A DNA stretch of 64,000 nt from Patescibacteria group bacterium (GCA_041662625.1 JBAZSB010000001.1:535189-599188), one strand, 5' to 3'. Counted from the stretch's first letter, positions 12,485 to 47,525 are shown. Translations and numbers: made by a program. The notes: generated by a model not told the origin, from the sequence alone.

Positions 12485-13519
12485 TTAGATGGTCCGGCCA
12501 ATAGCGATAGCCACGGCACGGACCTTGATCATTAGTTCAGCAAACTGCTGCGGATATAGCGACTGAGCGCCATCGCAAAGAGCTGAATCTGGATCAGGAT
12601 GAACTTCAATTAGTAATCCATCTGCGCCGACTGCTACTGCTCCCAAAGCGATGTCGGGTACAAGCTCGCGCTTGCCAGAAGGATGTGATGGGTCAAAGAT
12701 AACGGGGTGATGAGTCAACTTTTTGACGACCGGAATCGCGTCGAGATCGGCGTTGAAACGGGTGTAACCGTTATCAATGCCCCGGACACCACGAGCACAT
12801 AGGATTACTCGCGGGTTGCCAGAAGCAACGATGTACTCAGCGGCTAGTAGCCACTCATTAATGGTTGCAGCCATTCCCCGCTTCAGGATCACTGGCTTAT
12901 TGGTTCGACCAACAGCTTCCAACAAGGGGTAGTTTCCCATGTTGGCTGTACCAATCTGCAAGACATCAGCATATTGGGCGACCAACTCCACTAGCTCCGG
13001 CGAAATCACCTCCGTAACCGTGGCTAACCCCACTTGCCGTTTAGCCTGCTGTAATAGCCGCAGGCCTTCTTCGCCTAGACCTTGAAAGGCGAAAATTGAC
13101 TTACGTGGTTTGTAAGCACCTCCACGCAGCAGTCGAGCGCCGGCGGCCTTAACCGCTTCAGCACAACTAATCAGCTGCTGTTCGGATTCAACAGCACACG
13201 GTCCGGCTATCACCACCAGTGGCTCTGCACTGCCGATAGACACTCCGTTGAGGCGAACAGCGAAATCCTCTGGATGGGCCTGGCGAGCAGTCAAACGAAA
13301 CTGGGTAGTGGCAATCACCACATCAATGACGAAAGGCAGGCCACGGAAGAATTCCTGGAGCGCCAACTTGCGCTCATAATCCACCGCTCCGATGCAGTTA
13401 ATAACGATGATCTCTTTACCGCACGAGACCAACGTCTGCTCGAAACCGGCTTGTCTCGCCTCACTTTGGATTTTCCCGATCTGTTCTTTCGAACAGTCAC
13501 CTTTGATCTGAACAAACAT
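12485..13519 (-). CDS. 3-deoxy-7-phosphoheptulonate (DAHP) synthase, type Ibeta with N-terminal ACT/ferredoxin-like regulatory domain
   Basis: VVIAGPCAVESEQQ and LLRGGAYKPRKS are the KDO8PS-like DAHPS core. The start is taken as ATG 13519 (MFVQIKGD), which is preceded by GGAGG. GC-rich cassette. Confidence 0.8.
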   Translation of the reverse strand: MFVQIKGDCSKEQIGKIQSEARQAGFEQTLVSCGKEIIVINCIGAVDYERKLALQEFFRGLPFVIDVVIATTQFRLTARQAHPEDFAVRLNGVSIGSAEPLVVIAGPCAVESEQQLISCAEAVKAAGARLLRGGAYKPRKSIFAFQGLGEEGLRLLQQAKRQVGLATVTEVISPELVELVAQYADVLQIGTANMGNYPLLEAVGRTNKPVILKRGMAATINEWLLAAEYIVASGNPRVILCARGVRGIDNGYTRFNADLDAIPVVKKLTHHPVIFDPSHPSGKRELVPDIALGAVAVGADGLLIEVHPDPDSALCDGAQSLYPQQFAELMIKVRAVAIAIGRTI

Positions 13520-14360
13520 GATTGACCTCCTCTGCTTTAGGGTAAGAACCAACCACTACGACATCACTCACGAACCGTTCTTTGAGCTGCATAACCGCAG
13601 CGGCAAAGACCGGGTCACTCTCATGGCCATCAACATCAATCCAAAAGTAGCATTCTCCTAACGCCCGCTTGGTTGTATAGGAAGTAATGCGACTCAAGTT
13701 GAGGCCCTGATAGTAGAACACACCAAGAGCATGATACAGCGCCCCCGGTTCGTTCCTCGTAGAGAAGAAGAGAGTGGTCTTACTTTTACCATTGGCTGTT
13801 GTCCTGGGTCCTCCCAAGACAATAAAACGTGTCACGTTGTGTTGTGAATCGCCGATGTCAGCAGCCAGCACCTTAAGGCCAAATTGCTCAGCAGCCTGCT
13901 CGGAACTAATCGCCGCAACCATAGCCGATTCAGCCTGCGAGACCAACTCAGCAGCAAGCGCAGTGCTAGCCACTGGTGACTGTTTCCAACCACGGCCTCG
14001 CAAAAACTCCGAGCACTGAGCTAACCCCTGCGGATGCGACAAGACTTCGGTTACTGCCGACAATTCCGTTTGGGGTTTTGCTAAAAGCATCTGGCGAATT
14101 GGAATCAGTACTTCTTGGGTAATCCGCAGACCAGGCGTTGTCCAAACCCTGGCCATGAGAAAGTCGATGGTATCACGAACAACATCGCCCAAGACATTTT
14201 CCAACGGAACAATCGCCCGATCAATGCGGCCTTGAGTAAAGGCTTCGAGCAAATCAGGAATTGAATCAAACCCAACCAGCTCAAATTGGCCACGACCCCA
14301 GACGATTGCCGCTTGAGCGGAAAACGTTCCTAGCGGTCCTAGGTATCCTAACTTCAACAT
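13497..14360 (-). CDS. pheA: Prephenate dehydratase (PDT + ACT domains)
   Basis: LKLGYLGPLGTFS...TRF...TTKRALGECYFWIDVDGH is the PDT catalytic region plus a C-terminal ACT domain. The start is taken at the Met preceded by GGAAAGGAGA. Confidence 0.85.
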   Translation of the reverse strand: MLKLGYLGPLGTFSAQAAIVWGRGQFELVGFDSIPDLLEAFTQGRIDRAIVPLENVLGDVVRDTIDFLMARVWTTPGLRITQEVLIPIRQMLLAKPQTELSAVTEVLSHPQGLAQCSEFLRGRGWKQSPVASTALAAELVSQAESAMVAAISSEQAAEQFGLKVLAADIGDSQHNVTRFIVLGGPRTTANGKSKTTLFFSTRNEPGALYHALGVFYYQGLNLSRITSYTTKRALGECYFWIDVDGHESDPVFAAAVMQLKERFVSDVVVVGSYPKAEEVNHVCSDQR

Positions 14361-14388
14361 ACCCTGATGTCTCCTTTCCTCACTAGGG

Positions 14389-14847
14389 TTAATTGCCAAG
14401 ACCAGCTACCCGACCCAATACAAGCTCCAACAATCCCCGCCAACGACTGGGTTGTGACTCAATCTGGCGATCTGGTCTTCCATCTGGGAAAGTTGCTGCT
14501 GACGACGTCTGGCTTAAGCTAACGTTTGTCGCCTGAGGGCGGCTCTTCATGTCCGCAGCCAATCTCTCATAGATGTCACCGTAGACATCTTTCCACTTTG
14601 CATCAGCCGGTACCAGACCGCGCTCTTCGGCCAAAACCAGGATGGTTGGTTTGCTCAGATCACCCAGACAAATCAAGCCATTGGCCGCATCGTTGCCATC
14701 GCAACTATGGCACTGGTAGTACCGTGAAAGCTGAGCGATCAGATCATCCCGCGACCCGAAATCCAAACCGCAAGATCCGGCTTCAGCCTGCAGTGCCGCC
14801 GAGCTGAGCTGATTAAATCTCACTTGAACGCTCCATATACTCATATC
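14389..14847 (-). CDS. Hypothetical protein (152 aa), first gene of the Phe-attenuated operon
   Basis: GC-rich ORF with a strong SD (AAGGAAGGAGAG) before ATG 14847. No recognisable motif, and it is not an AroQ or AroH chorismate mutase. Confidence 0.5.
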   Translation of the reverse strand, partial: DMSIWSVQVRFNQLSSAALQAEAGSCGLDFGSRDDLIAQLSRYYQCHSCDGNDAANGLICLGDLSKPTILVLAEERGLVPADAKWKDVYGDIYERLAADMKSRPQATNVSLSQTSSAATFPDGRPDRQIESQPSRWRGLLELVLGRVAGLGN

Positions 14848-15069: not shown

Positions 15070-15129
15070 CTACCGGTCAGTATAAAAGAAAAAGCTGAAA
15101 AACCATTTTACGGCTTGTGTCTTTTGCAT
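15070..15129 (-). CDS. Phe-rich leader peptide MQKTQAVKWFFSFFFYTDR (19 aa)
   Basis: The ATG lies ~5-9 nt after the predicted TSS, so the transcript is near-leaderless. There are 5 Phe, 1 Trp and 1 Tyr in a 9-codon run. It sits directly upstream of the terminator and the pheA-DAHPS operon. Confidence 0.6.
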   Translation of the reverse strand: MQKTQAVKWFFSFFFYTDR

Positions 15130-17627: not shown

Positions 17628-17781
17628 TGGTCGGGGTGGCAGGATTTGAACCTGCGTCATCGCTTATGCGACTGCTCTTCCTCCTTACGGAGCCTTATCC
17701 TCTATTCCCCAAGCTTATTTGATGATCGGGACCATCTTAGCCAGAGTGGGTACTAATTGGCATCGGCTGAGCTACACCCCG
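17628..17781 (-). ncRNA. tRNA-like RNA element (154 nt): canonical acceptor stem, T-arm and encoded CCA, but no D or anticodon arms
   Basis: The 5' end CGGGGUGUAGCUCAGCC pairs perfectly with the 3' end GCAGGUUCAAAUCCUGC CACCCCG A CCA. The middle is ~95 nt of structured insert (CUCC-GUAA-GGAG and GUCGC-AUAA-GCGAU tetraloop hairpins). Terminator hairpins plus U-runs follow on the minus strand. Confidence 0.45.
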
Positions 17782-17984
17782 TAAATAACATTTAACCAAC
17801 AACAGTTAACAATTAACTGATAAAATAAAAGAGCCCAGGAAGTTGGGCTGTTAAATGTTAACTGTCAATTGTTTTTAGCTAATGATAAACCCAACTTCCC
17901 TAAGGCAAGGTTGGGGGGACGGGCTGAGTTGAACTGAAACGTTTAATCATAGAATTATCTTACTACTACTTAAAAATTTTGTCA

Positions 17985-18057: not shown

Positions 18058-18561
18058 CTAGATGGTAACATTAAGCAGGTTTGTCTTACTTCTCCCACTC
18101 ATATCGATTACGCCGGTGGGTGGAATTACTCCTTTCACCAGCGATAGCTGGGAATCCCCGTGGCGGGGAGATACCACAACCGACAACAGAATGGGTTGTC
18201 CACCTACAATGAACGATACTTCGGGAATTACGAAGCATTGATCTGCGGTGACCAAATCTCTGAGTTGCCGGCTGCCGGCTTCACTGGCTGCTTGCGCCTG
18301 CTGGGCGGAAATCACCCTAAAGTAAATCAATGCTGCGCCAACCCGCGGGTTGACCCAAACGCAATGCTCGCCAGCATTGCCGTTGCAGTCGGCCAAGGCT
18401 CGGCAAATCCAGGCCATAGCAGCATCCACATCGGTCCGGTTAATGATTTCCGGACTGCAGGCAGTACTGATCTTAGCCTGATCATAACCTTGACCTGTCA
18501 GATGCCGGTCAAAAAACCAAACATCTCGTCCGTTTCCTTCGACTTTCAGTTGTACTGGCAT
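18058..18561 (-). CDS. Hypothetical protein (167 aa), under the Leu-rich leader
   Basis: GC-rich ORF with a very strong SD (GGAAGGAGG) 7 nt before ATG 18561. No recognisable motif. Confidence 0.55.
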   Translation of the reverse strand: MPVQLKVEGNGRDVWFFDRHLTGQGYDQAKISTACSPEIINRTDVDAAMAWICRALADCNGNAGEHCVWVNPRVGAALIYFRVISAQQAQAASEAGSRQLRDLVTADQCFVIPEVSFIVGGQPILLSVVVSPRHGDSQLSLVKGVIPPTGVIDMSGRSKTNLLNVTI

Positions 18562-18576: not shown

Positions 18577-18753
18577 CTATTTCACCCGACCTAATTCCTT
18601 GCAGACCGGACACACTTTTGCCCCCTTGGGCATCCAGTGGTAATACTGGCAGGCTTCTGGGGCGTTAACCAACTCAATGTACAGCCAACGTCCGCCTACA
18701 ATGTAAGTGGCAACTATTGCCCCTACAATCCAGTGCCAAAGTGGTGGAAACAT
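18577..18753 (-). CDS. Small membrane protein (58 aa) MFPPLWHWIVGAIVATYIVGG...CPVCKEL, below ORF-track threshold
   Basis: One TM helix plus a C-terminal CxxC. An RBS-like GAAAGGGA precedes it. It lies between the Leu attenuator and the 167-aa gene. Confidence 0.4.
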   Translation of the reverse strand: MFPPLWHWIVGAIVATYIVGGRWLYIELVNAPEACQYYHWMPKGAKVCPVCKELGRVK

Positions 18754-18880: not shown

Positions 18881-18975
18881 GTAAACAAAACAACCTTCCG
18901 GGTGGAAGGCTGACTGGTATTTATCTAGCTACGATTTTTAGCTAAACACTAGTAAATCTTCCACCCAAAGGCTGG
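18881..18975 (-). terminator. Attenuator terminator of the Leu leader (conserved GGGUGGAAG / CUUCCACCC arms + UUGUUUUGUUU)
   Basis: Arms are ccttccgggtggaagg at 18893-18908 and cttccacccaaaggctgg at 18958-18975. Both arms are near-identical to those of the Ile attenuator at 22046-22141. Confidence 0.6.
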
Positions 18976-19028
18976 CTTAACAACAAGGCTAACAACAGTA
19001 AGCTAGATTGTTTGGCGAAAGATTTCAT
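18942..19028 (-). CDS. Leu-rich leader peptide MKSFAKQSSLLLLALLLSQPLGGRFTSV (28 aa)
   Basis: 7 Leu in a 9-codon run. The ORF starts ~5 nt after the predicted TSS. The stop codon lies inside the terminator loop. Confidence 0.6.
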   Translation of the reverse strand: MKSFAKQSSLLLLALLLSQPLGGRFTSV

Positions 19029-19163: not shown

Positions 19164-19493
19164 CTAGACCTGTGCGCCAAGCTCCCGCAGTTGAGCCAAA
19201 AGCTCCGGAGCGACAGCAACGCCATGCCGCTGACTCAGGAATTCAACAGTTGACGGAACGCAGACATAGCATAATTGAGCCTTTCTGTCTCTCCAGTGCC
19301 CTGGCTTACCGTTGCTGGGTTCAGGTCCTGGCAAATTCAGCTTAGTGTTGAGCACCTTAAGCTCCTGAAGATTCCCCCTTAGTCTCCGAAGGAGATCAGA
19401 AGGATCATCCAGCCTTTCACACTTGGTCCGCCGCGGGACCCTATCTACACCAACACCATCAACATCCTGTTCAATTCCAGCACAGTCTACCAT
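19164..19493 (-). CDS. Hypothetical protein (109 aa)
   Basis: GC-rich ORF with SD AAGGAG 9 nt before the ATG. No recognisable motif. Confidence 0.5.
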   Translation of the reverse strand: MVDCAGIEQDVDGVGVDRVPRRTKCERLDDPSDLLRRLRGNLQELKVLNTKLNLPGPEPSNGKPGHWRDRKAQLCYVCVPSTVEFLSQRHGVAVAPELLAQLRELGAQV

Positions 19494-19527
19494 GGTTCCT
19501 TCTCCTTCATGTTATCGATTCATTCAA

Positions 19528-19812
19528 TCAACACAAGCCACAAGTAGCATATACCGCTTCTTTGGTGATCATCCCAGAACCAGTTGCGTTGCCGCGAAAG
19601 ACTTTCACCCTACCATTAGTCCGGACGGCAAAACAATGATAAGCGCAGGCAACACCGGAGTAATGAAACTCCACTATTCGCGGATCACACTGACCACCGA
19701 TCACTAGTTGACCAGCCTCGTTGACAGAAATTCTGACCCTTCTGTCGTAGGTGACACTTTGACCGGGTTTGAGATCAAAAGTCGCATCCGGCATCAAATC
19801 ATCATCTTCCAT
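19528..19812 (-). CDS. Hypothetical Cys-containing protein (94 aa), under the Val-rich leader
   Basis: SD AGAGGAG before the ATG. C-terminal Cys pairs (ACAYHC...ATCGLC). No family recognised. Confidence 0.5.
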   Translation of the reverse strand: MEDDDLMPDATFDLKPGQSVTYDRRVRISVNEAGQLVIGGQCDPRIVEFHYSGVACAYHCFAVRTNGRVKVFRGNATGSGMITKEAVYATCGLC

Positions 19813-19929
19813 AGCCCTAACTCCTCTAAGTCTTATCGACTTGTTTGCAAAGAACAGATACGAATCTGCCCTCCTCTCCCTAAACTCGGTTTATTTCCTA
19901 CCCTCTGATCAGCAACATAAACAAAGGGT

Positions 19930-19962
19930 AATAAACAAAAAACTAGTCCTTTGACAGACTAG
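19930..19962 (-). terminator. Attenuator terminator of the Val leader (CUAGUC-loop-GACUAG + UUUUUUGUUUAUU)
   Basis: The 3' tail UUUUUUGUUUAUU(A/G)CC is shared with the Phe attenuator terminator. The leader codons GUA CUA GUC can compete for GACUAG. Confidence 0.5.
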
Positions 19963-19993
19963 GTGGTTCCAGTTCTAATTTTGGAAATCCAAA

Positions 19994-20059
19994 CTACCCA
20001 GTCTGCGAGACTAGTACGACGACGGTCAAAACGACAGTTGTCCGGGCAATAGATTTCAT
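19994..20059 (-). CDS. Val-rich leader peptide MKSIARTTVVLTVVVLVSQTG (21 aa)
   Basis: 6 Val in a 9-codon run. The MKS.A+ N-terminus and SQ.G C-terminus parallel the Leu and Ile leaders. Near-leaderless. Confidence 0.55.
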   Translation of the reverse strand: MKSIARTTVVLTVVVLVSQTG

Positions 20060-20065
20060 ACGATT

Positions 20066-20095
20066 AGTTTAGCAAATCAAAAATAATCTTGTCAA
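20066..20095 (-). promoter_or_regulatory. Sigma70-like promoter for the Val leader (TTGACA-18-TAAACT)
   Basis: Spacing and hexamers parallel the other three attenuator promoters. Confidence 0.4.
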
Positions 20096-20109
20096 ATTTT
20101 AAAAAAAGA

Positions 20110-20150
20110 CCGACCACCCCGTGACAGAGTAATCGGTCGCATAATACCTG
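20110..20150 (-). terminator. Intrinsic terminator after the LeuA/CimA-like gene (GACCGA..UCGGUC + U7)
   Basis: Hairpin followed by UUUUUUU on the minus strand. Confidence 0.5.
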
Positions 20151-20178
20151 GAGTTTTGCGCTTAGGCGATAGCTTTGA

Positions 20179-21945
20179 CTAACGGCGATGACAGTGCAGA
20201 AAGTACTGATAGCCGGCCGCTAATGCTCGGGCCGAAGCTTCGGTTACTGACTCGGAGACAGCAACTGTTCCCCAAATTTCATCACCATTATTCTTGATGC
20301 GCCAGAACAGTATTACCCGAACCCGGGCAGCTGTTCCGTCATGGTTAATCAACGCTTTCACGTTGTAGTTAACCAATTCAAGGCCTACCAGCTCGGGGAA
20401 AACCGGTTCACGCGACCGGCCACCGCGTTCCTGCAGTGCCTGACGCAGAGCTTTGTCCAAGGCGTTGACCAAGCCATCACCTTTGGCCGTCTTCAGACCG
20501 ATAGTCCGGCCATCAGCCAACTCGACTTGAACCGTTGCCTTGGGACTGCCCAGCATCAAATTCTGAAGCTGCCGATCAAGAGTTTCACCGGGCAAGCCGG
20601 TGTAGGGCGGAATCCTCTCAGTCAACTCGCACATCGTCACAGTGAAAAACGGCTGCAATCGGTCTAGCTGGCGCAAGGCCAAAAGTCGAAAACTACCCTC
20701 AGCCGTTTCAAACAGCCAACCATCCCTTTCCAAGCCGTGAACCTTATCAAGCAGCTCGCCAATTCGCGGATCGCTTGGTGCCAAGTTTCTGATAAACTCA
20801 GCTAATCGAACGCGCATCAAGGTTCGGCCGGCTTGATTGGATAGGCCAAGGCTGGTCTGGTTGCCAACCATTGCCGCCCGGATGTGCTCAACTGAATCAG
20901 GATCTTTCAGCCAAGCGTGACTGTGGGTTCCACCTTCGTGATGGAAGGCATTGGGTCCGGCCACCGGCAGGTTGAACGGAATTTCAATTCCCGCCAGATT
21001 GTAGACGTAGCGGGTCAGAGCCGTCCAAAGGGTAAGTTGCTTGGCGGTTACTACGGCAATGCCCATCTTAAGGACCAGACTGGGGATGATCGTGGTCAGG
21101 TTAGCATTGCCAGTCCGCTCACCGATACCACCAATCGTTCCTTGGACATGATCGCAACCGAGTTCAACTGCCAAAAGCGAATTGGCATCGCCCATGCCGG
21201 AATCATTATGGGTATGAACACCCCATTCGACTCCCTGATCCTTTAACCAAGGCACGACGTCGAGCAGAAAAGCAAGCCATTCTGCCGGCAAGGTCCCGCC
21301 GCGGGTGTCACATAGAACTATCCGGCGAGCCCCACCATTGATTGCAGCTGACAAAGTCTTGAAGAAGTATCTTCGGTCGTCTCGCCAGCCGTCAACCGCA
21401 TGCTCGGCATCATAAATGACGGTTTTGCCAACCGATACCAGCGCCGCTACCGTTTCTTCGATTATCCGCAGATTTTCTGCCAGCCGGATTTCCAAAACCC
21501 TTTGGACGTGAAGCTTCCAGCTCTTGCCGAAAACCACCACGTGACTTACGCCAGTATCCAAGACCGACTTGATCATCGGATTGGTGATAAGAATTCGCTC
21601 ACCAGGTTTGTTCGGCTTGACCGTTCCCATAAAAGCGTAAAAAGTCACGCCAAGCTGATGGTACCGCTTTCTTTGAGCGAGAAGCTGACGAAAGACCTCC
21701 GGGTTGACTTTGTCACTCGGCACTGGCCAGCCAACCTCAATATGGCGCAAGCCGGCTCTAACCGCCTGGCTAATCACACTCATCTTGTCCTCGGCCGTCC
21801 AAGTCAGACTCCGAGTCTGACCACCGTCACGACAAGTAGTGCAGAGCAGATCGACTTTCTTTGGTCGACCAAGCAATTTCAGCAACTTAGGCTCAGTCGC
21901 CAATCTCGCTATTACGTCAGCTAGTGACTTCTGAACTAACTGCAT
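20179..21945 (-). CDS. 2-isopropylmalate synthase / (R)-citramalate synthase family enzyme (HMGL-like TIM barrel + C-terminal LeuA-dimer regulatory domain)
   Basis: Contains RDGGQ, HTHNDSGMGDANSLLAVELGCDHVQGTIGGIGERTGNANL, and a long C-terminal regulatory region. The start is taken at the Met preceded by AAGGAGG (MQLVQKSL). The Ile-rich leader suggests citramalate synthase (isoleucine pathway), but this is inference. Confidence 0.8.
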   Translation of the reverse strand: MQLVQKSLADVIARLATEPKLLKLLGRPKKVDLLCTTCRDGGQTRSLTWTAEDKMSVISQAVRAGLRHIEVGWPVPSDKVNPEVFRQLLAQRKRYHQLGVTFYAFMGTVKPNKPGERILITNPMIKSVLDTGVSHVVVFGKSWKLHVQRVLEIRLAENLRIIEETVAALVSVGKTVIYDAEHAVDGWRDDRRYFFKTLSAAINGGARRIVLCDTRGGTLPAEWLAFLLDVVPWLKDQGVEWGVHTHNDSGMGDANSLLAVELGCDHVQGTIGGIGERTGNANLTTIIPSLVLKMGIAVVTAKQLTLWTALTRYVYNLAGIEIPFNLPVAGPNAFHHEGGTHSHAWLKDPDSVEHIRAAMVGNQTSLGLSNQAGRTLMRVRLAEFIRNLAPSDPRIGELLDKVHGLERDGWLFETAEGSFRLLALRQLDRLQPFFTVTMCELTERIPPYTGLPGETLDRQLQNLMLGSPKATVQVELADGRTIGLKTAKGDGLVNALDKALRQALQERGGRSREPVFPELVGLELVNYNVKALINHDGTAARVRVILFWRIKNNGDEIWGTVAVSESVTEASARALAAGYQYFLHCHRR

Positions 21946-22045
21946 ATCAGTATCCTCCTTCCGTTTGTCACGAATTATAACTCCAGTTGATGTCAAGGTT
22001 CCAACTCCCTCCATGACTTACAAAGACAATCTAAGTAAGACAATC

Positions 22046-22141
22046 AAAAAAACCTTCCGGGTGGAAAGTCTCTCTGATCGTTTTACTTATTTCTGATTTC
22101 TTATTTCTGATTTCTCATCTTAAGACTTCCACCCAAAGGCT
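22046..22141 (-). terminator. Attenuator terminator of the Ile leader (GGGUGGAAGUCUCU...AGAGACUUUCCACCC + U7)
   Basis: Long hairpin with a perfect U7. The 5' arm and preceding 22 nt (UUAGCCAGCCUUUGGGUGGAAG) are identical to the Leu attenuator. Confidence 0.65.
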
Positions 22142-22190
22142 GGCTAATGATGATAATACCGATAATAATGTTTTGCCGCGTAGAAGTCAT
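22101..22190 (-). CDS. Ile-rich leader peptide MTSTRQNIIIGIIIISQPLGGSLKMRNQK (29 aa)
   Basis: 7 Ile in an 8-codon run. The ORF starts ~9 nt after the predicted TSS. The SQPLGG segment is encoded by the conserved scaffold. Confidence 0.6.
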   Translation of the reverse strand: MTSTRQNIIIGIIIISQPLGGSLKMRNQK

Positions 22191-22205
22191 AATTTTTATA
22201 TCGTT

Positions 22206-22234
22206 ATCTTAAGCTAAACCAAAAGAATAGTCAA
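22206..22234 (-). promoter_or_regulatory. Sigma70-like promoter for the Ile leader (TTGACT-17-TAAGAT)
   Basis: Hexamers and 17-nt spacing read directly from the sequence. Confidence 0.45.
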
Positions 22235-22262
22235 GTTTTTAAAATAATCTAGCTAATTTCAG

Positions 22263-22487
22263 CTATTTTGGTAAGTTGCCATCATTATTTAAATTTATTG
22301 GCTGATTTAATGACCGACTGGGTATTACCGCGGCTGAAGCTTGAAAAGCGTAGGCCACCCAGCCCAAAATGAACAAGACTAAAATTATGGACAATATCGA
22401 CAAACCTAAAAATTGACCTGCCTCCCGCAAACTTTGCAGCCTGGATTTTCTGGGATAACGATAGTTTTTACTTAAGTATGGCGACAT
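22263..22487 (-). CDS. Hypothetical small membrane protein (74 aa)
   Basis: Single TM segment. No motif. Confidence 0.3.
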   Translation of the reverse strand: MSPYLSKNYRYPRKSRLQSLREAGQFLGLSILSIILVLFILGWVAYAFQASAAVIPSRSLNQPINLNNDGNLPK

Positions 22488-22510
22488 AAATTTAAAAAGA
22501 CCTAATCAGT

Positions 22511-22687
22511 TCACTGCATATGATCATTGATGAACTTAATTAGGTCTTTTTCAAAAACCCGGTAAGTTTTATGGCCTATTTTAGCGGCCCTTAATTTGCG
22601 GGCAGCAACCCAGCGGTAAACCGTTTTTTGGCTTACCTTCATGATCTTAGCGACTTCTTCGAGGGTGAGAATTCCGTAGTTAGACAC
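22511..22687 (-). CDS. Excisionase/AlpA-family helix-turn-helix DNA-binding protein (58 aa, GTG start, not in ORF track)
   Basis: Translation VSNYGILTLEEVAKIMKVSQKTVYRWVAARKLRAAKIGHKTYRVFEKDLIKFINDHMQ. LTLEEVAKIL.VS..TVYRW...G.L.A.KIG is the excisionase-family HTH pattern. Confidence 0.45.
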   Translation of the reverse strand: MSNYGILTLEEVAKIMKVSQKTVYRWVAARKLRAAKIGHKTYRVFEKDLIKFINDHMQ

Positions 22688-22699
22688 GCAAATTAGGGT

Positions 22700-22790
22700 T
22701 AGCGACTAATAGTCGACTTCACCTCTAATTCTACAATTTAATGTCCTCTATTGTCAATCATAAGTAAAACATTGTCCTTTATTGTCCAAT
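22700..22790. promoter_or_regulatory. Palindrome CGACTAaTAGTCG plus two direct repeats ATTGTCCT(C/T)TATTGTC(C)AAT upstream of the HTH gene
   Basis: Direct repeats at 22743-22759 and 22773-22790. These are candidate regulator or recombinase binding sites. Confidence 0.3.
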
Positions 22791-22864
22791 ACCAATTTAG
22801 TTGAAAAATACAAAAAAATGGCTTTTTAAAGCCATTTTTTTTATATTCTACCTAATAAATACTA

Positions 22865-23461
22865 CTACTCAAACATTACGTCCTCATCAGATCTTTTGTA
22901 GTTATCCACAATGTCCCCTTTCTTAAACCAAAGTTGTTCTTCATATTTGGCTTCCTCGGTATTTCCCGAAGCATGCATGATATTACGGACTGCTCGCTTT
23001 TTAACATTAGCCAGGGCTGGAGAATCAATTGAAAAATCACCGCGGATAGTGCCAGGGGTGGCAAAAACCGGTAAGGTATTGCCGGCCAAGGCCCGGACAT
23101 TATCAATGGCATGAACCCCTTCCAGTAAAATTGCAACCACAGGACCGGAAGTAATAAATTCGATATTCCATTTGTTCACCAACTTACCAATCGCGGCTGG
23201 GTCAAGATCAGCAAATTCTTCATGAGGGTCTCGGCCATATTTTTCGTAAGTTTGTAAAGTCTTTTCACCAATTGCCTTCATCAGTTCAGTCCGATTCTCG
23301 GGGTAATGTTTTTTTGCTAAATCAGCATCAACCCAAACCATTTTCATGGCCTTAATTTTTAAACCCATTTTTTCAAAGCGAGATAGCACTTCACCAACCA
23401 ATCCCCGCTTTACGCCATCGGGTTTGACTAAAACTACAGTTTTTTCTTTTTGTAAGTCCAT
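22865..23461 (-). CDS. ndk: Nucleoside diphosphate kinase
   Basis: VLVKPDGVKRGLVGEVLSRFEKMGLKI...RGDFS...NIMHASGNTEEA is the NDK fold, with an insertion. Confidence 0.9.
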   Translation of the reverse strand: MDLQKEKTVVLVKPDGVKRGLVGEVLSRFEKMGLKIKAMKMVWVDADLAKKHYPENRTELMKAIGEKTLQTYEKYGRDPHEEFADLDPAAIGKLVNKWNIEFITSGPVVAILLEGVHAIDNVRALAGNTLPVFATPGTIRGDFSIDSPALANVKKRAVRNIMHASGNTEEAKYEEQLWFKKGDIVDNYKRSDEDVMFE

Positions 23462-34752: not shown

Positions 34753-36078
34753 CTATAGGTCCAAATATCTTTTCAATTCTTTCGGCGTTACTTCGGTTTT
34801 CTGCTCATCTATTTCTATGTGCTTGGCATCAATGAATCTATCCAAAGTATGCTGCGTGATAGCACTCTTAATCACTTCATCTTGATTCAATTCATCAATC
34901 GCTTCTGGGAGTGAACCCGGCAGACTGGATATTTTTAACTCTTGTTTTCTGTTGCTATCTAAATGATAAATATCTTCTTCAACTGCCTTAGACAATGGCA
35001 TGTCTTTTTCAATTCCATCTAAACCGGCTGCTAATATTGCCGCAAAGGCTAAATAAGGATTGCATGACGGATCAGGTGATCGAAGTTCAACCCTGGTTGA
35101 TTGCTCACGGCCGGGTGTATACCGTGGAATTCGGATAAGCGCCGAACGGTTCATCTGGGCCCAGCAGATATTGACTGGCGCTTCATAACCCGGAATCAAT
35201 CTTTTAAAAGAGTTGGTAGTTGGATTGGTTAAGGCCGTAAAACTTCGACTGTGTTTTAGCAATCCGGCAATAAACTGGTAAGCGATTTTTGACAGCTTAT
35301 AACCATTATTATCTTCGTAAAATAAATTATTACCTTTCAAATCAAACAAACTCAAGTGAACATGCATGCCCGACCCATTGATACCAGCAAACGGCTTTGG
35401 CATAAATGTCGCGTTGACGCCATAACTTTGGGCAATGGCTTTGATGGTAGTTTTTAAGGTAATAATGTTATCGGCTGTATTTAAGGCATCGGCATAACGA
35501 AAATCTATTTCATGCTGGCCAACGGCAACTTCGTGATGTCCGGCTTCAATTTTTATGTTTAGTTCAGATGAAGCTTTGATAACGTCTTCCCTGATTTTTG
35601 AGGCAATATCAAAAGGAGAAAAATCAAAATAACCGCCATAATCGTGAGGCACGGGAGCTAAATTACTGTCTTTTTGCAAAAGAAAAAATTCCAGTTCAGC
35701 ACCGACATTCAAAACATATCCCTTTTCTTCTGCCCTTTTCATTGCTTGCCGCAAAATGTAGCGAGGATCACCGCTAAATGGTTTTAAATCAGGCCCGTAG
35801 ACATCACAGATTATCCTGGCCGCTTTATTATCTTTTGTGCTCCAAGGTAAAGTACAGTAAGTTTTTGCGTCAGGCATTAAAAGCTGATCACTTTCGGCAA
35901 TTCTGGCAAACCCTTCAATTGATGAGCCGTCAAACCAAACGCCTTTTTCTAAGGCACCGGGCAATTGTTCAGTCGGAATAACTACGTCTTTAGGCACGCC
36001 CAATATATCCGTAAACTGCAAATGAATGTATTTAACGTTGTCTTTATTGACTTTTTCTAAAAGTGTTTCCTTATCCAT
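34753..36078 (-). CDS. glnA: Glutamine synthetase type I
   Basis: 441 aa with KPFAGINGSGMHVHLSLF and the ATP-binding region. Confidence 0.95.
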   Translation of the reverse strand: MDKETLLEKVNKDNVKYIHLQFTDILGVPKDVVIPTEQLPGALEKGVWFDGSSIEGFARIAESDQLLMPDAKTYCTLPWSTKDNKAARIICDVYGPDLKPFSGDPRYILRQAMKRAEEKGYVLNVGAELEFFLLQKDSNLAPVPHDYGGYFDFSPFDIASKIREDVIKASSELNIKIEAGHHEVAVGQHEIDFRYADALNTADNIITLKTTIKAIAQSYGVNATFMPKPFAGINGSGMHVHLSLFDLKGNNLFYEDNNGYKLSKIAYQFIAGLLKHSRSFTALTNPTTNSFKRLIPGYEAPVNICWAQMNRSALIRIPRYTPGREQSTRVELRSPDPSCNPYLAFAAILAAGLDGIEKDMPLSKAVEEDIYHLDSNRKQELKISSLPGSLPEAIDELNQDEVIKSAITQHTLDRFIDAKHIEIDEQKTEVTPKELKRYLDL

Positions 36079-36142
36079 AGTTAATTGTTAATTGTTAAAC
36101 TAAAAAAGCGCCTAAATCATTAGACGTCTTTGTCGGAATTGT

Positions 36143-36158
36143 GACACGCCTTTGTGTC
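36143..36158 (-). promoter_or_regulatory. Candidate ANTAR-target hairpin in the glnA leader (GACAC-AAAGGC-GUGUC)
   Basis: 5-bp stem with a hexaloop that has A1 and G4. A weaker second hexaloop hairpin (GAC-AAAGAC-GUC) follows. The regulator is encoded immediately upstream. Confidence 0.3.
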
Positions 36159-36210
36159 ATTAATATCTTAGCACAAATAAAAAATTTGGCAAGTGCTGTT
36201 TTGTGGATAA

Positions 36211-36912
36211 CTAATTTATAACGTCTTGAGCTAAAATAATGGCTTCCGCCACTTCCTTCAGTGACCGGCGTTTATCCATGCTTTTTTTAACCAAAAGTCG
36301 ATGAGCCTCTTCTTCAGTTAAACCGCCAGTTTTCATTAAAATCGCTTTGGCTTTATTAATTACCTTTTGGGTTTCTAAAGCTTCCTTTAGAACATTGGTT
36401 TCAGAAATTAATCGCGATACTTCTAAAATTCCGCCGATTTGTTTGGCAATGGTTTCCAAAAAATTAATTTCTTTTTTTGGATATTTTTTGGATTTTTTAT
36501 GCTGAACATTAATTACGCCAATCACGCTGTTTTTAAAAATTATCGGCACGGATAAAAATCCTTCAAACTTATCTTCCGGCAAAGTGGAGAACAATTTAAA
36601 ACGCTTATCATCATAAGCCTTGCTGGCAATGGCTACCGTCTTTTTGGTTTCCGCCACCCAGCCAGTAATACCTTCGCCGACTTTCATTTTAATTTTGGCT
36701 AGGTTAGAATGGTGCGGATTCTGCGACGCTTTTAAAATCACTTCGTCGCCGGAAATTAGATAAATAAAACAAGAATCAGCCTTAGTCACTTTGCCAATAA
36801 TTTTAGCGATGTTATTCAAAATTTCCTTAAGATCAAAACCATTGCCAATGGTATCAATGATTTCCTGCAAAATCGCTAAATTGTTTTTGACGTCAGAACT
36901 TTGATTAGGCAT
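36211..36912 (-). CDS. GAF-ANTAR RNA-binding antitermination regulator
   Basis: N-terminal GAF domain. C-terminal ANTAR LKEALETQKVINKAKAILMKTGGLTEEEAHRLLVKKSMDKRRSLKEVAEAII. Confidence 0.8.
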   Translation of the reverse strand: MPNQSSDVKNNLAILQEIIDTIGNGFDLKEILNNIAKIIGKVTKADSCFIYLISGDEVILKASQNPHHSNLAKIKMKVGEGITGWVAETKKTVAIASKAYDDKRFKLFSTLPEDKFEGFLSVPIIFKNSVIGVINVQHKKSKKYPKKEINFLETIAKQIGGILEVSRLISETNVLKEALETQKVINKAKAILMKTGGLTEEEAHRLLVKKSMDKRRSLKEVAEAIILAQDVIN

Positions 36913-43910: not shown

Positions 43911-44450
43911 TTAGTTATTTATTGCAGCCAAAACCTTCAATTTACTTGATTTCGCCCAAATCATTGCTCCTTCATAAACACCAAATAAAACCGAAGTATA
44001 AAAGAGATCACCAAGCATTGAATTACGGAAGAAAGGTAAGGCGAGGGTATAACAATGAATCAAGCCGGCAAAACTTTTAGTATACCAGGGGGAAAATTGC
44101 CAAACCGCATAATTAGTCACTAAATAAAATAAAACTGAAGCAACCAGACTGGTGGCCACTACAGTTTCTAAACTTTTATATCTTTTAATTAGGCTACCTA
44201 ATAAACCAATTATGATAAAACTGCTATAAACTGCTAACATCACTTTAAAATCGTAGAAACCAATAAATAAATCGCCAATTAGCATCGTGATGACGGGTAA
44301 AACAACAGCGTAACGCCGGCCTAAGTAAACACCAGCGAATAAGGCAATTGCTGCTACCGGCGCAAAATTCCACATATGCGGCAGAAGCCGGCAACTGACT
44401 CCCAAAATAATGAGGATAGCTGAGATAATAAGTTTAGTTTTTTTGTCCAT
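43911..44450 (-). CDS. ECF-transporter S-component-like small membrane protein (candidate cobalamin-specific, CbrT-like)
   Basis: 179 aa, 5-6 TM. Last gene of the B12-riboswitch operon. This is assigned by context and topology, not by motif. Confidence 0.45.
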   Translation of the reverse strand: MDKKTKLIISAILIILGVSCRLLPHMWNFAPVAAIALFAGVYLGRRYAVVLPVITMLIGDLFIGFYDFKVMLAVYSSFIIIGLLGSLIKRYKSLETVVATSLVASVLFYLVTNYAVWQFSPWYTKSFAGLIHCYTLALPFFRNSMLGDLFYTSVLFGVYEGAMIWAKSSKLKVLAAINN

Positions 44451-44488
44451 ATACTTTTTTAATTTCTTAATTTTTTAATTTCTTATTA

Positions 44489-44944
44489 TTATTGAATTTG
44501 CCCCCGAATATATTTCCATTCGACAAAATCACCATCATTCAGCTTATAGGCGCTGGCCCCAATCTCAGCATATTTATTATTGACCCAGTACTGCCAATAT
44601 TTATCACCAGCAATACTGTTTTTTATGTCCCCGACTCCTTCCACAAAAACTCCGAGTTCACCGTAATCTTTGGAGCTTAATTTCAAATTATTTTCTGAGG
44701 TGACTTTTTCCAATAAAGTAAAAACTGCGGCATCTTTGGCTAAACTAACATCGTTAAATGTCCGGACTTGGCCATTGCCGAAATCAAGCATCAGACTAAC
44801 AACGATTGTTTCTTTTTGGTTTTGCTCCAAAGGTTGATTAATTGCTTTATTGCCATCAGAGGGCGATAAAGCTTGCTGACCCCCAATATAGAAACCAGCA
44901 ACGAAGATAGCGACGGCAATGATAATTTTAGCCAGTAGTTTCAT
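44489..44944 (-). CDS. DUF4430 (transcobalamin beta-domain-like) secreted protein
   Basis: The C-terminus YWQYWVNNKYAEIGASAYKLNDGDFVEWKY matches the DUF4430 pattern. Signal anchor. In the B12 operon. Confidence 0.6.
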   Translation of the reverse strand: MKLLAKIIIAVAIFVAGFYIGGQQALSPSDGNKAINQPLEQNQKETIVVSLMLDFGNGQVRTFNDVSLAKDAAVFTLLEKVTSENNLKLSSKDYGELGVFVEGVGDIKNSIAGDKYWQYWVNNKYAEIGASAYKLNDGDFVEWKYIRGQIQ

Positions 44945-44949
44945 AGTTA

Positions 44950-44985
44950 TTAGATTAGGAATTAGTTATTAGGTATTAGGAATTA
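44950..44985. repeat. Degenerate heptamer repeat ATTAGGN x5 (same motif family as 23467-23508)
   Basis: Reads attagga attagtt attaggt attagga attagg. Confidence 0.5.
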
Positions 44986-45525
44986 GGCTCTAGTGCGCCT
45001 AATTACTAACCACCTCTTATACAGCAATTTTACCCCAAAAACTAATCCTAAACAAGCAGCCACTAAGACAATTAAGCCGACTATTAACCACCAGGTTGGC
45101 CAGCCCAAGCTATTAATAGTAATTGGCAATTTCACCCCAGATGCTGCAGAAAAGCTTGAAGCCTCTAAGGGCCGAGCCACAATGGAAATATTAGTACTAA
45201 ATAAACCCGGCGTCTTAACTCTGATTTGGACTTTCACTAGTTGGTTTGCTCCGGCATCAAGCAAAAAATCAGTTGGTGCAATTTCAATTGCCTTTTCTAA
45301 AGCATCGGGATAAATCTGATATAAGGCTGGCTGATCAGCGACATTCATCACCAAAAATTCAGTAACAGTCACTTTACCAGTTTTAACTTGTAAATCAATT
45401 CGTTTCGGCTTAACCCCTACCCCCACTGCCTGAACCGACTGTCCAATCATAAAACTTACTAAAATCAAGATCAATAACCCACCAAAATTCCTGCGATTGG
45501 CGATTGGCGATTGGCGATTGGCCAT
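44983..45525 (-). CDS. Surface protein with signal peptide and C-terminal TM anchor (180 aa)
   Basis: The N-terminus is encoded by a heptanucleotide repeat. The stop of the upstream gene is 3 nt from its ATG. Confidence 0.55.
   Translation of the reverse strand: MANRQSPIANRRNFGGLLILILVSFMIGQSVQAVGVGVKPKRIDLQVKTGKVTVTEFLVMNVADQPALYQIYPDALEKAIEIAPTDFLLDAGANQLVKVQIRVKTPGLFSTNISIVARPLEASSFSAASGVKLPITINSLGWPTWWLIVGLIVLVAACLGLVFGVKLLYKRWLVIRRTRA
45494..45521. repeat. Heptanucleotide tandem repeat (CGATTGG)x4 inside the first codons of the surface-protein gene
   Basis: Encodes M-ANRQSPIANR on the minus strand. The unit length is not a multiple of 3. Confidence 0.75.
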
Positions 45526-45528
45526 AAG

Positions 45529-47316
45529 CTATTGACTGGTAGCCCAAAAAATCAATTCGCCAGACTTAACACCGGAAGCCAAATAATTTCCCGGAACAGT
45601 TAAAGAAATCCCGGCAGTTTTACTTTCATTGGGCAGAAGGGTTTCGGTATAATCAGTACAAAGCTGGTCATTGATTTTAATCCCTGAAACAAAAACAACA
45701 TCACCGCTAACCGCAGCACCGACGTTTAAGCCGACTGTCCCGCCATTAGTTAAATTAACAACCCGGCTGTTAGTTTGGCCCGGCGCCAAAGTGCCGAAGT
45801 TAAGCTGGGACTGATCAACTACCAAAGCAATGGCTTCACCGCCAATATTACCGCCACCACTTTGGTTAATCTCAACTTGTAAACCCACTTTTTGACTGAC
45901 TGTATCACCAACAGTAATTTTTGATTTTTCACTACGAATAAATCCTGGCGTATCAATGTAAACTTGATAAAAACCATTCTGATTGATCGTTAAGGTCAGA
46001 TGCCCCGAAGCATCAGCAGTCCGAACTTCTTCGTTGACTTTAATCACTGCATTAGGTAAAGGCAACCAATCAGTGCCATTGAAATATTGGGCGGCAACAT
46101 TGACCACTTCACCCGGATCTATCTCAAGTGGACTGGCATTAAGTTGCGTTGGATTCCAGCCCCATTCACCATAATAGAAAAGGACTTCATCGCCGGCTGC
46201 CAAAGTATAGCTATCAGCGCCGATTGGCGGCGAAATATTATCCACGAAATAAAGCCAGCCTGACGTTCCTTGCGCTTGCTCATCATTGATTGCCCGTAGA
46301 TACGGGCCGTAACTTTCTTGAGTGATTGTATAAGTATAACCGCAGATGGCTGCAGCGTTTTTCACTAAATCTAAAGCGTTAGTACCAGCCACTTGGGTAT
46401 CACAAATAGTGCTGGTGCTACCCTCAAGTCGAAGATGATAAGTACCCAGGTTTGAACCGTTTTGATAATAGCCAACCGGATAAGTTTTATTACTTAAAGC
46501 AATAACCGCAAAAGCCGTCATCGCCTTATTATTCCACTCCGAAGTGCCTTCCGTAACCCACCAAAAACCGCCATCTCCATCCTGCAAAGATTGTAAATGA
46601 GTAACTGGATTTTTTCCATTCTGATTCCAACTGTTGGGATTAACCCCCGCTTTAATCAGGGCGGAAATCACCCAGGAATCTGACCCAGCATCAGAATCAC
46701 TTCCCACCTCATACCCAATTCCCCCGTCAGCATTTTGGGCGGATTGAATATAGGCTAAAGCCCCAGTAATTACCACATCACTGTTGCTAACTCCAGCTTC
46801 AACTAAAGCCATGATCGCCGCGGCCGTGTCATTGGTATCGCTGCCAGCACCAACCGAATAGCTCCAGCCGCCATCAACATTTTGATGAGCTAACAAAAAA
46901 TTCTTCGCCGCACTGGCTTCTGGTGAGTTAACTTCACCCACTGAAGCTAGGGCTAGAATCGACCAGGCATCATCATTCAGTAAATTTTTGTCTCCCATTT
47001 GGTTATCACTAAAATACGTTTTCAGTTTAGCTACATAATCAATGGTGCCAAAAGTTTTGGGGTTTTCCCCAACTGCGGCCAAAGCTAAGATAGTTTTGGC
47101 GTAATCCGTGGCTAAATTACCGGAAACACTATGCAAGTAGCCAACTGGAATACTGGTTTCACCGGCTGCTTTTAAAGCCAAAGTGATCCACGGATCATCA
47201 ACTTGGCTTTTCAGATAAGTTACTGCTTCTGGGACTCCAGCCGATACAAAAGCCGGCTGAAAGATGAATGCTAGCATCAGCAAACTAACCCAGAAATTTT
47301 TGATTTTTGTCCTCAT
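45529..47316 (-). CDS. Secreted alpha/alpha-toroid (prenyltransferase/squalene-oxidase repeat) protein, transcobalamin alpha-domain-like
   Basis: Signal peptide plus repeated QxxDGG(W/F) motifs (AHQNVDGGWSY, SAQNADGGIGY, SLQDGDGGFWW). First gene after the cobalamin riboswitch. Confidence 0.65.
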   Translation of the reverse strand: MRTKIKNFWVSLLMLAFIFQPAFVSAGVPEAVTYLKSQVDDPWITLALKAAGETSIPVGYLHSVSGNLATDYAKTILALAAVGENPKTFGTIDYVAKLKTYFSDNQMGDKNLLNDDAWSILALASVGEVNSPEASAAKNFLLAHQNVDGGWSYSVGAGSDTNDTAAAIMALVEAGVSNSDVVITGALAYIQSAQNADGGIGYEVGSDSDAGSDSWVISALIKAGVNPNSWNQNGKNPVTHLQSLQDGDGGFWWVTEGTSEWNNKAMTAFAVIALSNKTYPVGYYQNGSNLGTYHLRLEGSTSTICDTQVAGTNALDLVKNAAAICGYTYTITQESYGPYLRAINDEQAQGTSGWLYFVDNISPPIGADSYTLAAGDEVLFYYGEWGWNPTQLNASPLEIDPGEVVNVAAQYFNGTDWLPLPNAVIKVNEEVRTADASGHLTLTINQNGFYQVYIDTPGFIRSEKSKITVGDTVSQKVGLQVEINQSGGGNIGGEAIALVVDQSQLNFGTLAPGQTNSRVVNLTNGGTVGLNVGAAVSGDVVFVSGIKINDQLCTDYTETLLPNESKTAGISLTVPGNYLASGVKSGELIFWATSQ

Positions 47317-47322
47317 AAACAA

Positions 47323-47525
47323 AAAATCTCCCGCCTCGAGGGGGAGTGGTTACTTCATTCGTTCTCTTAGAAAACGAAAGGTCACCGACTCTTGATCTCG
47401 AAGAGTTTAGTGATTTAATAGAGCCATAATTTTCTCGACCTGGCTTACCCCGATTTTATATTGGGGATTACAGTTGCGGATCAGCGGAGGATTCACACCT
47501 CGCTTCGGAAAATTAAAGCTGTTTG
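47323..47525 (-). promoter_or_regulatory. Cobalamin (B12) riboswitch with intrinsic-terminator expression platform
   Basis: Minus-strand RNA contains GGUGUGAAUCC-UCC-GCUGAU-CCGCAACUGUAAUCCCC ... GGGGUAAGCCAGG. This matches the GGUG.AA.UCC...CCGC.ACUGUAA core and the AGYCAGG B12 box. The terminator CUCCCCCUCGAGGCGGGAG plus U6 ends ~10 nt before the start codon. Confidence 0.7.

Follow-up and report, generated by a model that had tools for sequence, protein, structure and literature searches.

The closest described relative of the enzyme considered here is the Geobacter-type citramalate synthase (CimA; NCBIfam family TIGR00977), exemplified by the G. sulfurreducens enzyme (Risso et al. 2008, as cited in PMC7826400 and PMC3002917). 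A citramalate synthase of a separate lineage, that of Leptospira interrogans (LiCMS; PDB 3BLE, 3BLF and 3BLI; NCBIfam NF042433), has a C-terminal regulatory region that is inhibited by isoleucine (PMC7826400). On the regulatory side, the attenuators of the Escherichia coli leuL/ilvL and trpL type combine a short open reading frame (ORF) carrying a run of cognate codons with overlapping 1:2, 2:3 and 3:4 helices and an intrinsic terminator placed before the gene; leuL and ilvL are annotated in this position relative to leuA and ilvG. The E. coli ilvL leader contains a mix of Ile, Leu and Val codons. Inspection of a 64,000-nucleotide stretch of DNA from a Patescibacteria group bacterium (GCA_041662625.1, JBAZSB010000001.1:535189-599188; 'the window' below means this whole stretch) revealed a monocistronic unit in which an attenuator with an isoleucine-only leader peptide probably controls a divergent, TIGR00977-like citramalate synthase. 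All elements of this unit lie on the minus strand and are given here in the order of transcription (related metagenome contigs carry L numbers):

22206..22234, minus strand: sigma-70-like promoter TTGACT-17-TAAGAT, a 9/12 match; the same TTGAC(T/A)-17-TAAGAT or TAATAT is found upstream of orthologues
22101..22190, minus strand: leader peptide ORF MTSTRQNIIIGIIIISQPLGGSLKMRNQK, 29 codons plus stop
22180..22188, minus strand: region 1 GACUUCUAC, at the start of the leader ORF, pairing with region 2 in the minimum-free-energy fold of the free RNA
22146..22169, minus strand: regulatory codon run ATT ATT ATC GGT ATT ATC ATC ATT (IIIGIIII, seven Ile in eight codons; codons 8-15)
22124..22134, minus strand: region 2 GGGUGGAAGUC, 5' strand of the antiterminator, which also encodes the conserved ...LGGS... 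of the leader; its partner is conserved or compensated in orthologues
22059..22070, minus strand: region 3 GACUUUCCACCC, with region 2 (antiterminator) or region 4 (terminator) as partner
22046..22068, minus strand: attenuator terminator CUUUCC-ACCC-GGAAGG plus U7, its stem extendable by AGAGAGA/U-run pairs
21954..21962, minus strand: strong Shine-Dalgarno sequence of the synthase gene, GGAAGGAGG, kept as GGAAGGAGGA in L005 and L015
20179..21945, minus strand: gene of a CimA-like 2-oxoacid:acetyl-CoA condensing enzyme, 588 aa from the ATG at 21945
20101..20138, minus strand: intrinsic terminator 3' of the synthase gene (stem 20138..20108, 14 bp, plus T7)

The synthase gene lies in a 611-aa ORF (20179..22014 in the ORF track of the window). 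Its 588-aa product is identical to NCBI protein MFA6254952.1, encoded on a 922,082-bp contig and named 'MAG: alpha-isopropylmalate synthase regulatory domain-containing protein [Patescibacteria group bacterium]'. The translation contains the motifs CRDGGQT, VHTHND (HxH[DN]D), GIGERTGN, DAEH and HHEGGTH. Pfam assigned to it an HMGL-like domain (aa 31-291), HCS_D2 (aa 329-396) and LeuA_dimer, the LeuA allosteric domain (aa 466-582), that is, the architecture expected of a Geobacter-type CimA: a TIM barrel, a second subdomain and a C-terminal regulatory domain. The initial annotation of this DNA, made from the sequence alone, had given both lengths, 588 and 611 aa, and had named the RDGGQ motif, the HxH...GERTGN active-site region, a C-terminal regulatory domain and an upstream leader with seven Ile in eight codons; each of these was recovered, the leader at 22190..22101. 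The presence of an intrinsic terminator immediately after the gene indicates that the unit is monocistronic. In this respect it differs from the canonical cimA of Desulfobotulus, which lies within an ilvD-ilvBN-cimA-leuA array, while the gene in the window stands outside any ilv-leu cluster. A candidate second promoter between the attenuator and the gene (TTGACA..TATAAT, ∼21995..21973) was discarded; its spacer measures only 11 nt and it is out of register in L015.

The best-scoring NCBIfam model for the protein was TIGR00977 (citramal_synth; 398 bits, E = 5e-119, model positions 2-519 of 526). The best LeuA model scored 176 bits, and the LysS, NifV and Leptospira CimA (NF042433) models scored 154, 139 and 70 bits respectively; the margin of TIGR00977 over every LeuA, NifV or homocitrate synthase model exceeded 220 bits. 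A search among 5.8 billion sequences identified seven other sequence clusters with 54-82% identity to the protein (eight in all), after which identity fell to 38% for the next best; this clade is confined to Patescibacteria. A scan of GTDB genomes found one close relative only, in a metagenome-assembled genome (MAG) of Moraniibacteriota, GCA_003157295.1. The initial annotation had proposed that the assignment be examined by phylogenetic placement, and in a neighbour-joining (NJ) tree rooted with LeuA the seven clade members included formed a single monophyletic group, whose sister was the set of 112 canonical CimA sequences and not LeuA. Although the protein shares with M. tuberculosis-type LeuA (PDB 1SR9) the superfamily, the fold and the principle of a C-terminal allosteric domain, it is only 19% identical to Patescibacteria LeuA. 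These results support its assignment to a divergent CimA subfamily, as far as can be judged from sequence.

When five clade members were aligned with 12 canonical proteins that carry the annotation citramalate synthase, the barrel-lining and catalytic motifs proved unvarying: RDGxQ, E-x-G-W-P, FGKxW..H, YDAEH, CDT-GG, HxHND, GxGERxGN and HxxGxH. The residues invariant in the clade and in canonical CimA were R39, D40, E70, D179-A-E181-H182, C212-D-T214, H244/H246/D248, G275-E-R-x-G-N280 and H336/H341. The ratio of non-synonymous to synonymous substitution (dN/dS) between orthologues was 0.05-0.10 with saturated synonymous sites, a sign of strong purifying selection, and this is therefore a working protein-coding gene. 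The AF2 model of the synthase (pLDDT 86, pTM 0.76) contains the barrel and a beta-alpha-beta regulatory domain. Its closest PDB folds, detected with Foldseek, were the catalytic domains of homocitrate synthase, MAM synthase, LeuA and Leptospira CimA (TM 0.85-0.89; 0.88-0.89 for the LiCMS catalytic domain); the PDB sequence and fold searches thus reached the general superfamily only, and no TIGR00977-type structure was found among the entries. The likeness to LiCMS extends to the fold and, as predicted, to the reaction class, whereas the low NF042433 score and the YDAEH motif, in place of the YLEDW of LiCMS-type proteins, place the two in separate lineages of the superfamily.

The 181-nt leader RNA folded more stably than its shuffled versions (z = -4.8). 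When a ribosome was masked in silico at the first or middle Ile codons, the 2:3 antiterminator formed; when it was masked at the stop codon, the terminator formed (the 'ribosome at stop' fold has -12.9 kcal/mol), and a mask at the last Ile codon partly covered region 2. The outcome was the same in the eight leaders submitted to this procedure, namely those of the window, of six orthologous units and of one Leu unit. In the six frames of the window, just two short ATG ORFs (10-45 aa) were found with 7/8 identical residues: the Ile leader and a Leu ORF 3 kb downstream. The Ile-leader ATG is located 15 nt 3' of the -10 hexamer, so that the 5' untranslated region (UTR) of the leader must be very short. 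The arrangement resembles that of the E. coli attenuators in its codon run, its three overlapping helices and its terminator; it differs in that the leader is predicted to sense a single amino acid, to control a single gene and to be nearly leaderless, and in that it belongs to a series of homologous cassettes. Region 1 may act as an anti-antiterminator, although the folding predicts this clearly only in the window and in L005. On these predictions the control element is very probably a classical Ile-specific leader-peptide attenuator, an assignment made with more confidence than that of the enzyme's role.

Seven of seven distinct orthologues (54-82% protein identity) have an Ile-rich leader ORF and a terminator upstream; homologous Ile leaders are present in L004, L005, L015, L012, L001, L017 and L019, and equivalent terminators were found in all orthologues of the unit. 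Examples of the orthologous leader peptides are MTFTKDIIISIIIISQPMGGSLSTM, MTFTQRSIIIGIIIIDQPMGGSLSTL, MQIRKFSTISIIISIIKKPLEWKV and MKLKNIFIIIISIIITRLELSSEFSF; their Ile codons show synonymous differences only. Region 2 occurs as three distinct sequences, GGGUGGAAGUC, CGAGUGGAAGG and GUUGUCGAGU, each with a complementary region 3 opposite. Compensating helices were seen in L012, L001 and L017, and where region 3 reads UCCGCCC a G·U pair preserves the pairing. The 2:3 duplex was more stable than 95% of shuffles in 20 of 27 distinct leaders, the failures deriving mostly from the automatic definition of the sequence window examined. The leader in the window has a peculiarity missing from the orthologous leaders: a perfect tandem duplication of GAAATCAGAAATAA (22114..22087, minus strand) across the leader stop codon, which yields two in-frame TAA copies and a longer spacer between regions 2 and 3. 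Genes for a 58-aa protein of the HTH_17 (excisionase) type and for a membrane protein of 74 aa (22263..22687, minus strand) immediately precede the promoter of the Ile leader and occupy the same position in L016; the 29 nt 5' of the promoter showed no terminator, so that read-through into the Ile leader is possible.

The Ile unit is the first of four tandem attenuator units located upstream of the rpsL-rpsG-fusA-tuf operon, in the order Ile (cimA-like gene), Val (orf94 and orf109), Leu (orf58 and orf167) and Phe (orf164-pheA-aroG); the order is the same in L018 and L019. The homologous leaders have in common the cassette pattern …xxxxGxxxxSQPxGG…, and between the Ile and Leu versions the codon run alone is swapped. 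Metagenomes from JGI were scanned with the Ile-leader DNA motif ATHATHATHNNNCAGCCNNNNGGTGGAAG, which gave 31 loci, and the gene following each distinct leader was classified. Behind the 26 distinct Ile leaders were found 15 CimA-type genes, six small allosteric-domain-like ORFs and three other small ORFs, two contigs being too short to tell; there was no LeuA. Behind the ∼16 distinct Leu leaders were found seven LeuA genes (three of the M. tuberculosis type and four of the bacterial type), two members of the orf58/orf167 family and ∼6 unknown genes, with one contig too short; there was no CimA. The CimA-type genes behind Ile leaders belong to two independent lineages, 11 being TIGR00977-like and four Leptospira-type. 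Three TIGR00977-like proteins scanned outside the clade of the window gene scored 366-427 bits. The Leptospira-type genes are those of L027/L031, L047, L049 and L035 (the last cut by the contig end); the products of L027, L047 and L049 scored 462-548 bits against NF042433 and have the YLEDWSQG motif. The Leptospira-type CimA in the Ile slot thus appears as a non-orthologous replacement, driven by the same Ile-leader cassette as the gene in the window.

In the relative represented by L004/L018 (68% identical), a second gene 4.5 kb downstream encodes a LeuA of the M. tuberculosis type, ∼60% identical to the LeuA of Planctomycetota and Verrucomicrobiota, behind the leader MKTYLLQPELLLLGLLLLQPSGGRFTSV. 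Its sequence shows plainly that this Leu leader is the Ile-leader cassette with another codon run in place. A Leu leader precedes a normal LeuA in L019 too. Because Ile leaders precede two CimA lineages and never LeuA, this exclusive pairing supports the assignment as citramalate synthase and is taken to exclude a LeuA function; and since two unrelated CimA lineages occupy one Ile-controlled slot, it is the citramalate synthase reaction itself that seems to be selected.

The unit may operate as follows. Transcription would start a few bases 5' of the leader ATG, and the leader would be translated. With Ile-tRNA scarce, the ribosome would stall in the seven-Ile run and leave region 2 (GGGUGGAAGUC) free for region 3 (GACUUUCCACCC); the resulting 2:3 antiterminator would block the 3:4 terminator hairpin and allow RNA polymerase to read through into the synthase gene. 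With Ile-tRNA plentiful, the ribosome would reach the stop codon and cover or pass region 2, which could pair with region 1 again; formation of the CUUUCC/GGAAGG hairpin, followed by U7, would then end the transcript at ∼22046. The enzyme, if specific for pyruvate, would form (R)-citramalate from it and acetyl-CoA, a condensation that is the committed step towards 2-oxobutyrate and isoleucine on the threonine-independent route. As in the Geobacter-type enzyme, this would be the entry step of the pyruvate route, followed, where they exist, by LeuCD, LeuB and IlvBNCDE, and isoleucine probably exerts feedback inhibition via the C-terminal allosteric domain.

Several observations weigh against this reading. 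On the RNA side, the Ile leader has no Shine-Dalgarno sequence and the G+C core of the attenuator terminator spans only 6 bp, while a search of 19800..22900 against Rfam returned no leader family, T-box or riboswitch at E ≤ 5 and none at the gathering score; in lacking a Shine-Dalgarno sequence and an Rfam match the leader departs from the E. coli systems. On the protein side, the 398 bits obtained by the synthase do not reach the curated TIGR00977 cutoff of 450 bits, and its similarity to any canonical member is low, with 38% identity between the clade and canonical CimA as against ∼55% within the canonical group. The clade proteins are also ∼60 aa longer than canonical CimA (an N-terminal extension, two 4-aa inserts in the barrel, a linker insert of ∼17 aa and an 8-aa insert in the allosteric domain), and some residues beside conserved motifs have changed (CDTNGG to CDTRGG, AEHFFDGY to AEHAVDGW, AFAHKGG to AFHHEGG); the residues that differ include R215 (N in canonical CimA), A183/V184 (FF) and H335/E337. 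Given these inserts and substitutions near the motifs, a shift in substrate has to be allowed for. In six relatives (L022, L023, L030, L032/L036, L040 and L045), the Ile leader is followed by no full synthase and only by an ORF of 124-147 aa with a good Shine-Dalgarno sequence. The comparison of this mini-protein family with the CimA allosteric domain by hhalign gave a probability of 75% (P = 2.6e-5, 87 columns; 0.28 for the reversed control), a signal obtained from profile-profile comparison only, as Pfam searches with single mini-protein sequences returned nothing significant. Gene decay may have left these mini-proteins behind, or they may bind amino acids as proteins in their own right. 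Further, the homologues in L019 and L026 have degraded motifs (RESKQ for RDGxQ, HLHGD for HxHND, GYSERVRMA for GYGERCGNA); that of L019/L034 (499..2154; 551 aa) is an Ile-leader-controlled TIGR00977-like protein scoring 366 bits. Judging from these motifs their catalytic competence is doubtful, and catalysis is thus not kept in every relative. The mini-proteins and the degraded motifs could reflect gene decay still under way in a reductive lineage, or else a role of the allosteric domain that involves no catalysis; the case for catalysis by the intact and strongly constrained gene in the window is weakened by them but not overturned.

The pathway context also counts against the proposal. Patescibacteria have been described as consistently lacking amino-acid biosynthesis genes (PMC12455944). 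In tblastn searches of ∼490 kb, made up of the window and related Patescibacteria contigs, E. coli and deltaproteobacterial queries detected no LeuB, LeuC, LeuD, IlvA, IlvB, IlvC, IlvD, IlvE or IlvN. When the LeuA of L004 was used as a query, no match on the 922-kb contig of the window appeared among the best 120, a weak hint that this LeuA is absent from it. The lack of leuBCD and ilv genes in this ∼490 kb would be expected if the condensing enzyme worked under Ile control outside a complete endogenous pathway, only the committed, end-product-sensing step having been kept, with citramalate handed to a host or partner or with allosteric amino-acid binding or sensing as the main role. The known auxotrophy of Patescibacteria for amino acids points the same way, as do the content of the islands, which hold first-step enzymes only (CimA, LeuA, DAHP synthase and PheA), the stand-alone allosteric-domain-like protein in the Ile slot of six relatives and the orphan small proteins, not enzymes, in the Leu and Val slots of some genomes. 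However, the contigs cover a small part of each genome, the catalytic residues are invariant and dN/dS is low across the whole gene, and the recruitment of an unrelated CimA lineage to the same slot points to selection for the reaction, which would be useless without LeuCD and LeuB. We know of no precedent for an orphan committed-step enzyme of this kind, and consider this explanation unlikely. In a broader version, homologous Ile, Leu, Val and Phe attenuators, each for a single amino acid, would govern an island by rpsL-fusA-tuf that holds committed-step, end-product-binding enzymes only or, in sister genomes, stand-alone allosteric-domain-like or orphan small proteins; if the rest of the pathways were truly absent, the CimA-like protein would be part of a starvation-triggered system rather than of an endogenous Ile pathway, with a logic such as metabolite hand-off to the host or amino-acid sensing and scavenging in obligate symbionts. 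This broader version is given a small chance too, if slightly more than the former; whichever holds, the modular attenuator island with its orphan genes is the more unusual part of the finding.

Use of another 2-oxoacid, still tied to Ile supply (2-oxobutyrate, glyoxylate or a chain-elongation substrate), would be in line with a divergent sister clade that stays below the family cutoff and with the changes beside its active-site motifs, and there is no solved TIGR00977-type structure to anchor the residues that determine specificity. Yet every barrel-lining motif residue is common to canonical Geobacter-type CimA, and the same leader drives Leptospira-type CimA, with its YLED motif, in other genomes; a different substrate is therefore judged improbable. 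That the enzyme is an isopropylmalate synthase serving leucine synthesis is suggested by the NCBI and JGI annotations, both of which take their names from that enzyme, and by the shared fold and allosteric domain. Against this, LeuA models gave ≤176 bits where their cutoffs are ≥517 bits, the leader run contains no Leu codon, and relatives have a separate, true LeuA behind a Leu leader, so that this identity is hardly tenable. The initial annotation had argued from the Ile attenuator for a citramalate synthase rather than an isopropylmalate synthase, and the TIGR00977 placement, the motifs shared with CimA together with dN/dS, and the leader-gene pairing bear it out. Its alternative suggestion, a 2-benzylmalate or homophenylalanine chemistry linked to the neighbouring Phe module, did not hold. 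Such an HphA-like or other chain-elongation synthase of secondary metabolism could draw on the presence of pheA-aroG 6 kb downstream on the same strand, just as the hydrophobic leader peptide could be viewed as a small hydrophobic peptide gene in its own right. But the Phe genes have an operon and a Phe leader to themselves, several terminators and two further attenuator units intervene, the regulatory codons are Ile, and no HphB/CD-like genes (LeuB, LeuC or LeuD) were found in the sequences searched, on which grounds of gene context an HphA-type synthase was rejected. Moreover, leaders for Ile, Leu, Val and Phe exist in parallel, and each is accompanied by a terminator/antiterminator pair; many genomes have the cognate synthase behind an Ile or Leu leader, and a few have Phe genes behind a Phe leader. 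Either form of this idea has next to no probability left. Citramalate synthase thus remains the likely role of the enzyme.

A literature search found no paper on citramalate synthase or leader peptides in Patescibacteria. The divergent CimA subfamily and the classical attenuator are each of a known kind, and neither is described for Patescibacteria in the literature searched. The assignment provides a specific predicted function (cimA, Ile-regulated) for a protein that NCBI names only by its regulatory domain, and it documents predicted ribosome-mediated attenuation in Patescibacteria, of which no prior report was found. As a method, the codon identity of the leader separated CimA from LeuA paralogues in these uncultivated bacteria (15/15 and 7/7 in the sample). 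The leader packed with Ile codons strongly suggests that the enzyme starts isoleucine synthesis in bacteria thought to make no amino acids. Some Patescibacteria may thus retain the first steps of branched-chain and aromatic amino-acid synthesis, under regulation, despite their reputation as auxotrophs. The occurrence of the same cassette before orphan small proteins and proteins consisting of the allosteric domain alone offers a handle on how symbionts respond to shortage of a single amino acid.

The remaining attenuator units of the window comprise the following elements:

20095..19164, minus strand: Val unit, directly after the terminator of the cimA-like gene
20095..20066, minus strand: Val-unit promoter TTGACA-18-TAAACT
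20059..19994, minus strand: Val-rich leader MKSIARTTVVLTVVVLVSQTG
19962..19943, minus strand: Val-unit terminator, preceded by the antiterminator CAGACUGGG x CCUAGUCUG
19812..19528, minus strand: orf94, no Pfam or NCBIfam match
19493..19164, minus strand: orf109, no Pfam or NCBIfam match
19028..18942, minus strand: Leu leader MKSFAKQSSLLLLALLLSQPLGGRFTSV, seven Leu in eight codons, homologous to the Ile cassette; its terminator lies at ∼18915..18885
18753..18577, minus strand: orf58, with one transmembrane (TM) helix and a CxxC motif
18561..18058, minus strand: orf167, locus tag WC675_02850
15129..15070, minus strand: Phe leader MQKTQAVKWFFSFFFYTDR with hairpin and T-run, upstream of orf164, pheA and aroG
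13497..14399, minus strand: pheA, prephenate dehydratase
12485..13552, minus strand: aroG, DAHP synthase

The four leaders (22190, 20059, 19028 and 15129, minus strand) start 6-15 nt after the -10 hexamer and have no Shine-Dalgarno sequence, while the structural genes have a strong GGAGG; the leader transcripts may thus be leaderless or nearly so. The Val leader and an orf94 homologue are kept in L005, L018, L045, L047 and L049. In L019 and L024 the Val slot is filled by a 214-aa family, homologues of which are also encoded in L022 and L026. The Leu leader precedes orf58 and orf167 in the window, L005 and L015, and LeuA in L018, L019 and five other contigs. An exhaustive search with orf167 identified ∼10 small homologues plus spurious matches to FG-GAP repeats, where a word-indexed search had found orf167 itself only. 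Orf167 had no Pfam match, its comparison by hhalign with the LeuA and CimA allosteric domains was negative, and its single-sequence AF2 model was unusable (pLDDT 42). The first gene of the Phe operon, orf164, encodes a 164-aa protein of unknown function. L018 and L019 have equivalent Phe leaders: that of L018 precedes a DAHP synthase gene, that of L019 an unknown gene of 243 aa and a TyrA-PheA fusion.

Between the Leu and Phe units, a 154-nt element (17781..17628, minus strand) has tRNA-like ends, GGGGUGUAG... and ...ACGCAGGUUCAAAUCCUGCCACCCCGACCA. It gave a weak match to tmRNA (17.2 bits for a gathering score of 47) in which the tRNA-like domain alone aligned, with 114 nt between the ends as against ∼326; ARAGORN found nothing in this element near 17.7 kb. 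Upstream of it (17950..17840, minus strand) are a promoter-like site, a 16-codon ORF MIKRFSSTQPVPPTLP and a long hairpin GGGAAGUUGGG...CCCAACUUCC. The element may be a miniaturised tmRNA or some other tRNA-like RNA.

The window as a whole resembles a typical Patescibacteria segment, with genes for ribosomal proteins, EF-Tu, EF-G, FtsZ, FtsA and a split ComEC, as well as a class II ribonucleotide reductase, a nucleoside kinase and a nucleoside phosphorylase; position and ORF size indicate that rpoBC is probably included. An AdoCbl riboswitch (47534..47379, minus strand; 52.5 bits) lies upstream of a gene for a 597-aa protein with DUF4430 and prenyltransferase-like repeats, after which, within 43911..50669, come DUF4430 and DUF6580 proteins, adjoined by a corrinoid adenosyltransferase and a class II-like ribonucleotide reductase with TSCPD. 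This region is probably a cluster for B12 uptake and use. Finally, at 34753..36912 (minus strand) a glutamine synthetase gene adjoins that of a GAF-ANTAR RNA-binding antiterminator protein, a further sign of RNA-level control of nitrogen and amino-acid metabolism in this small genome.

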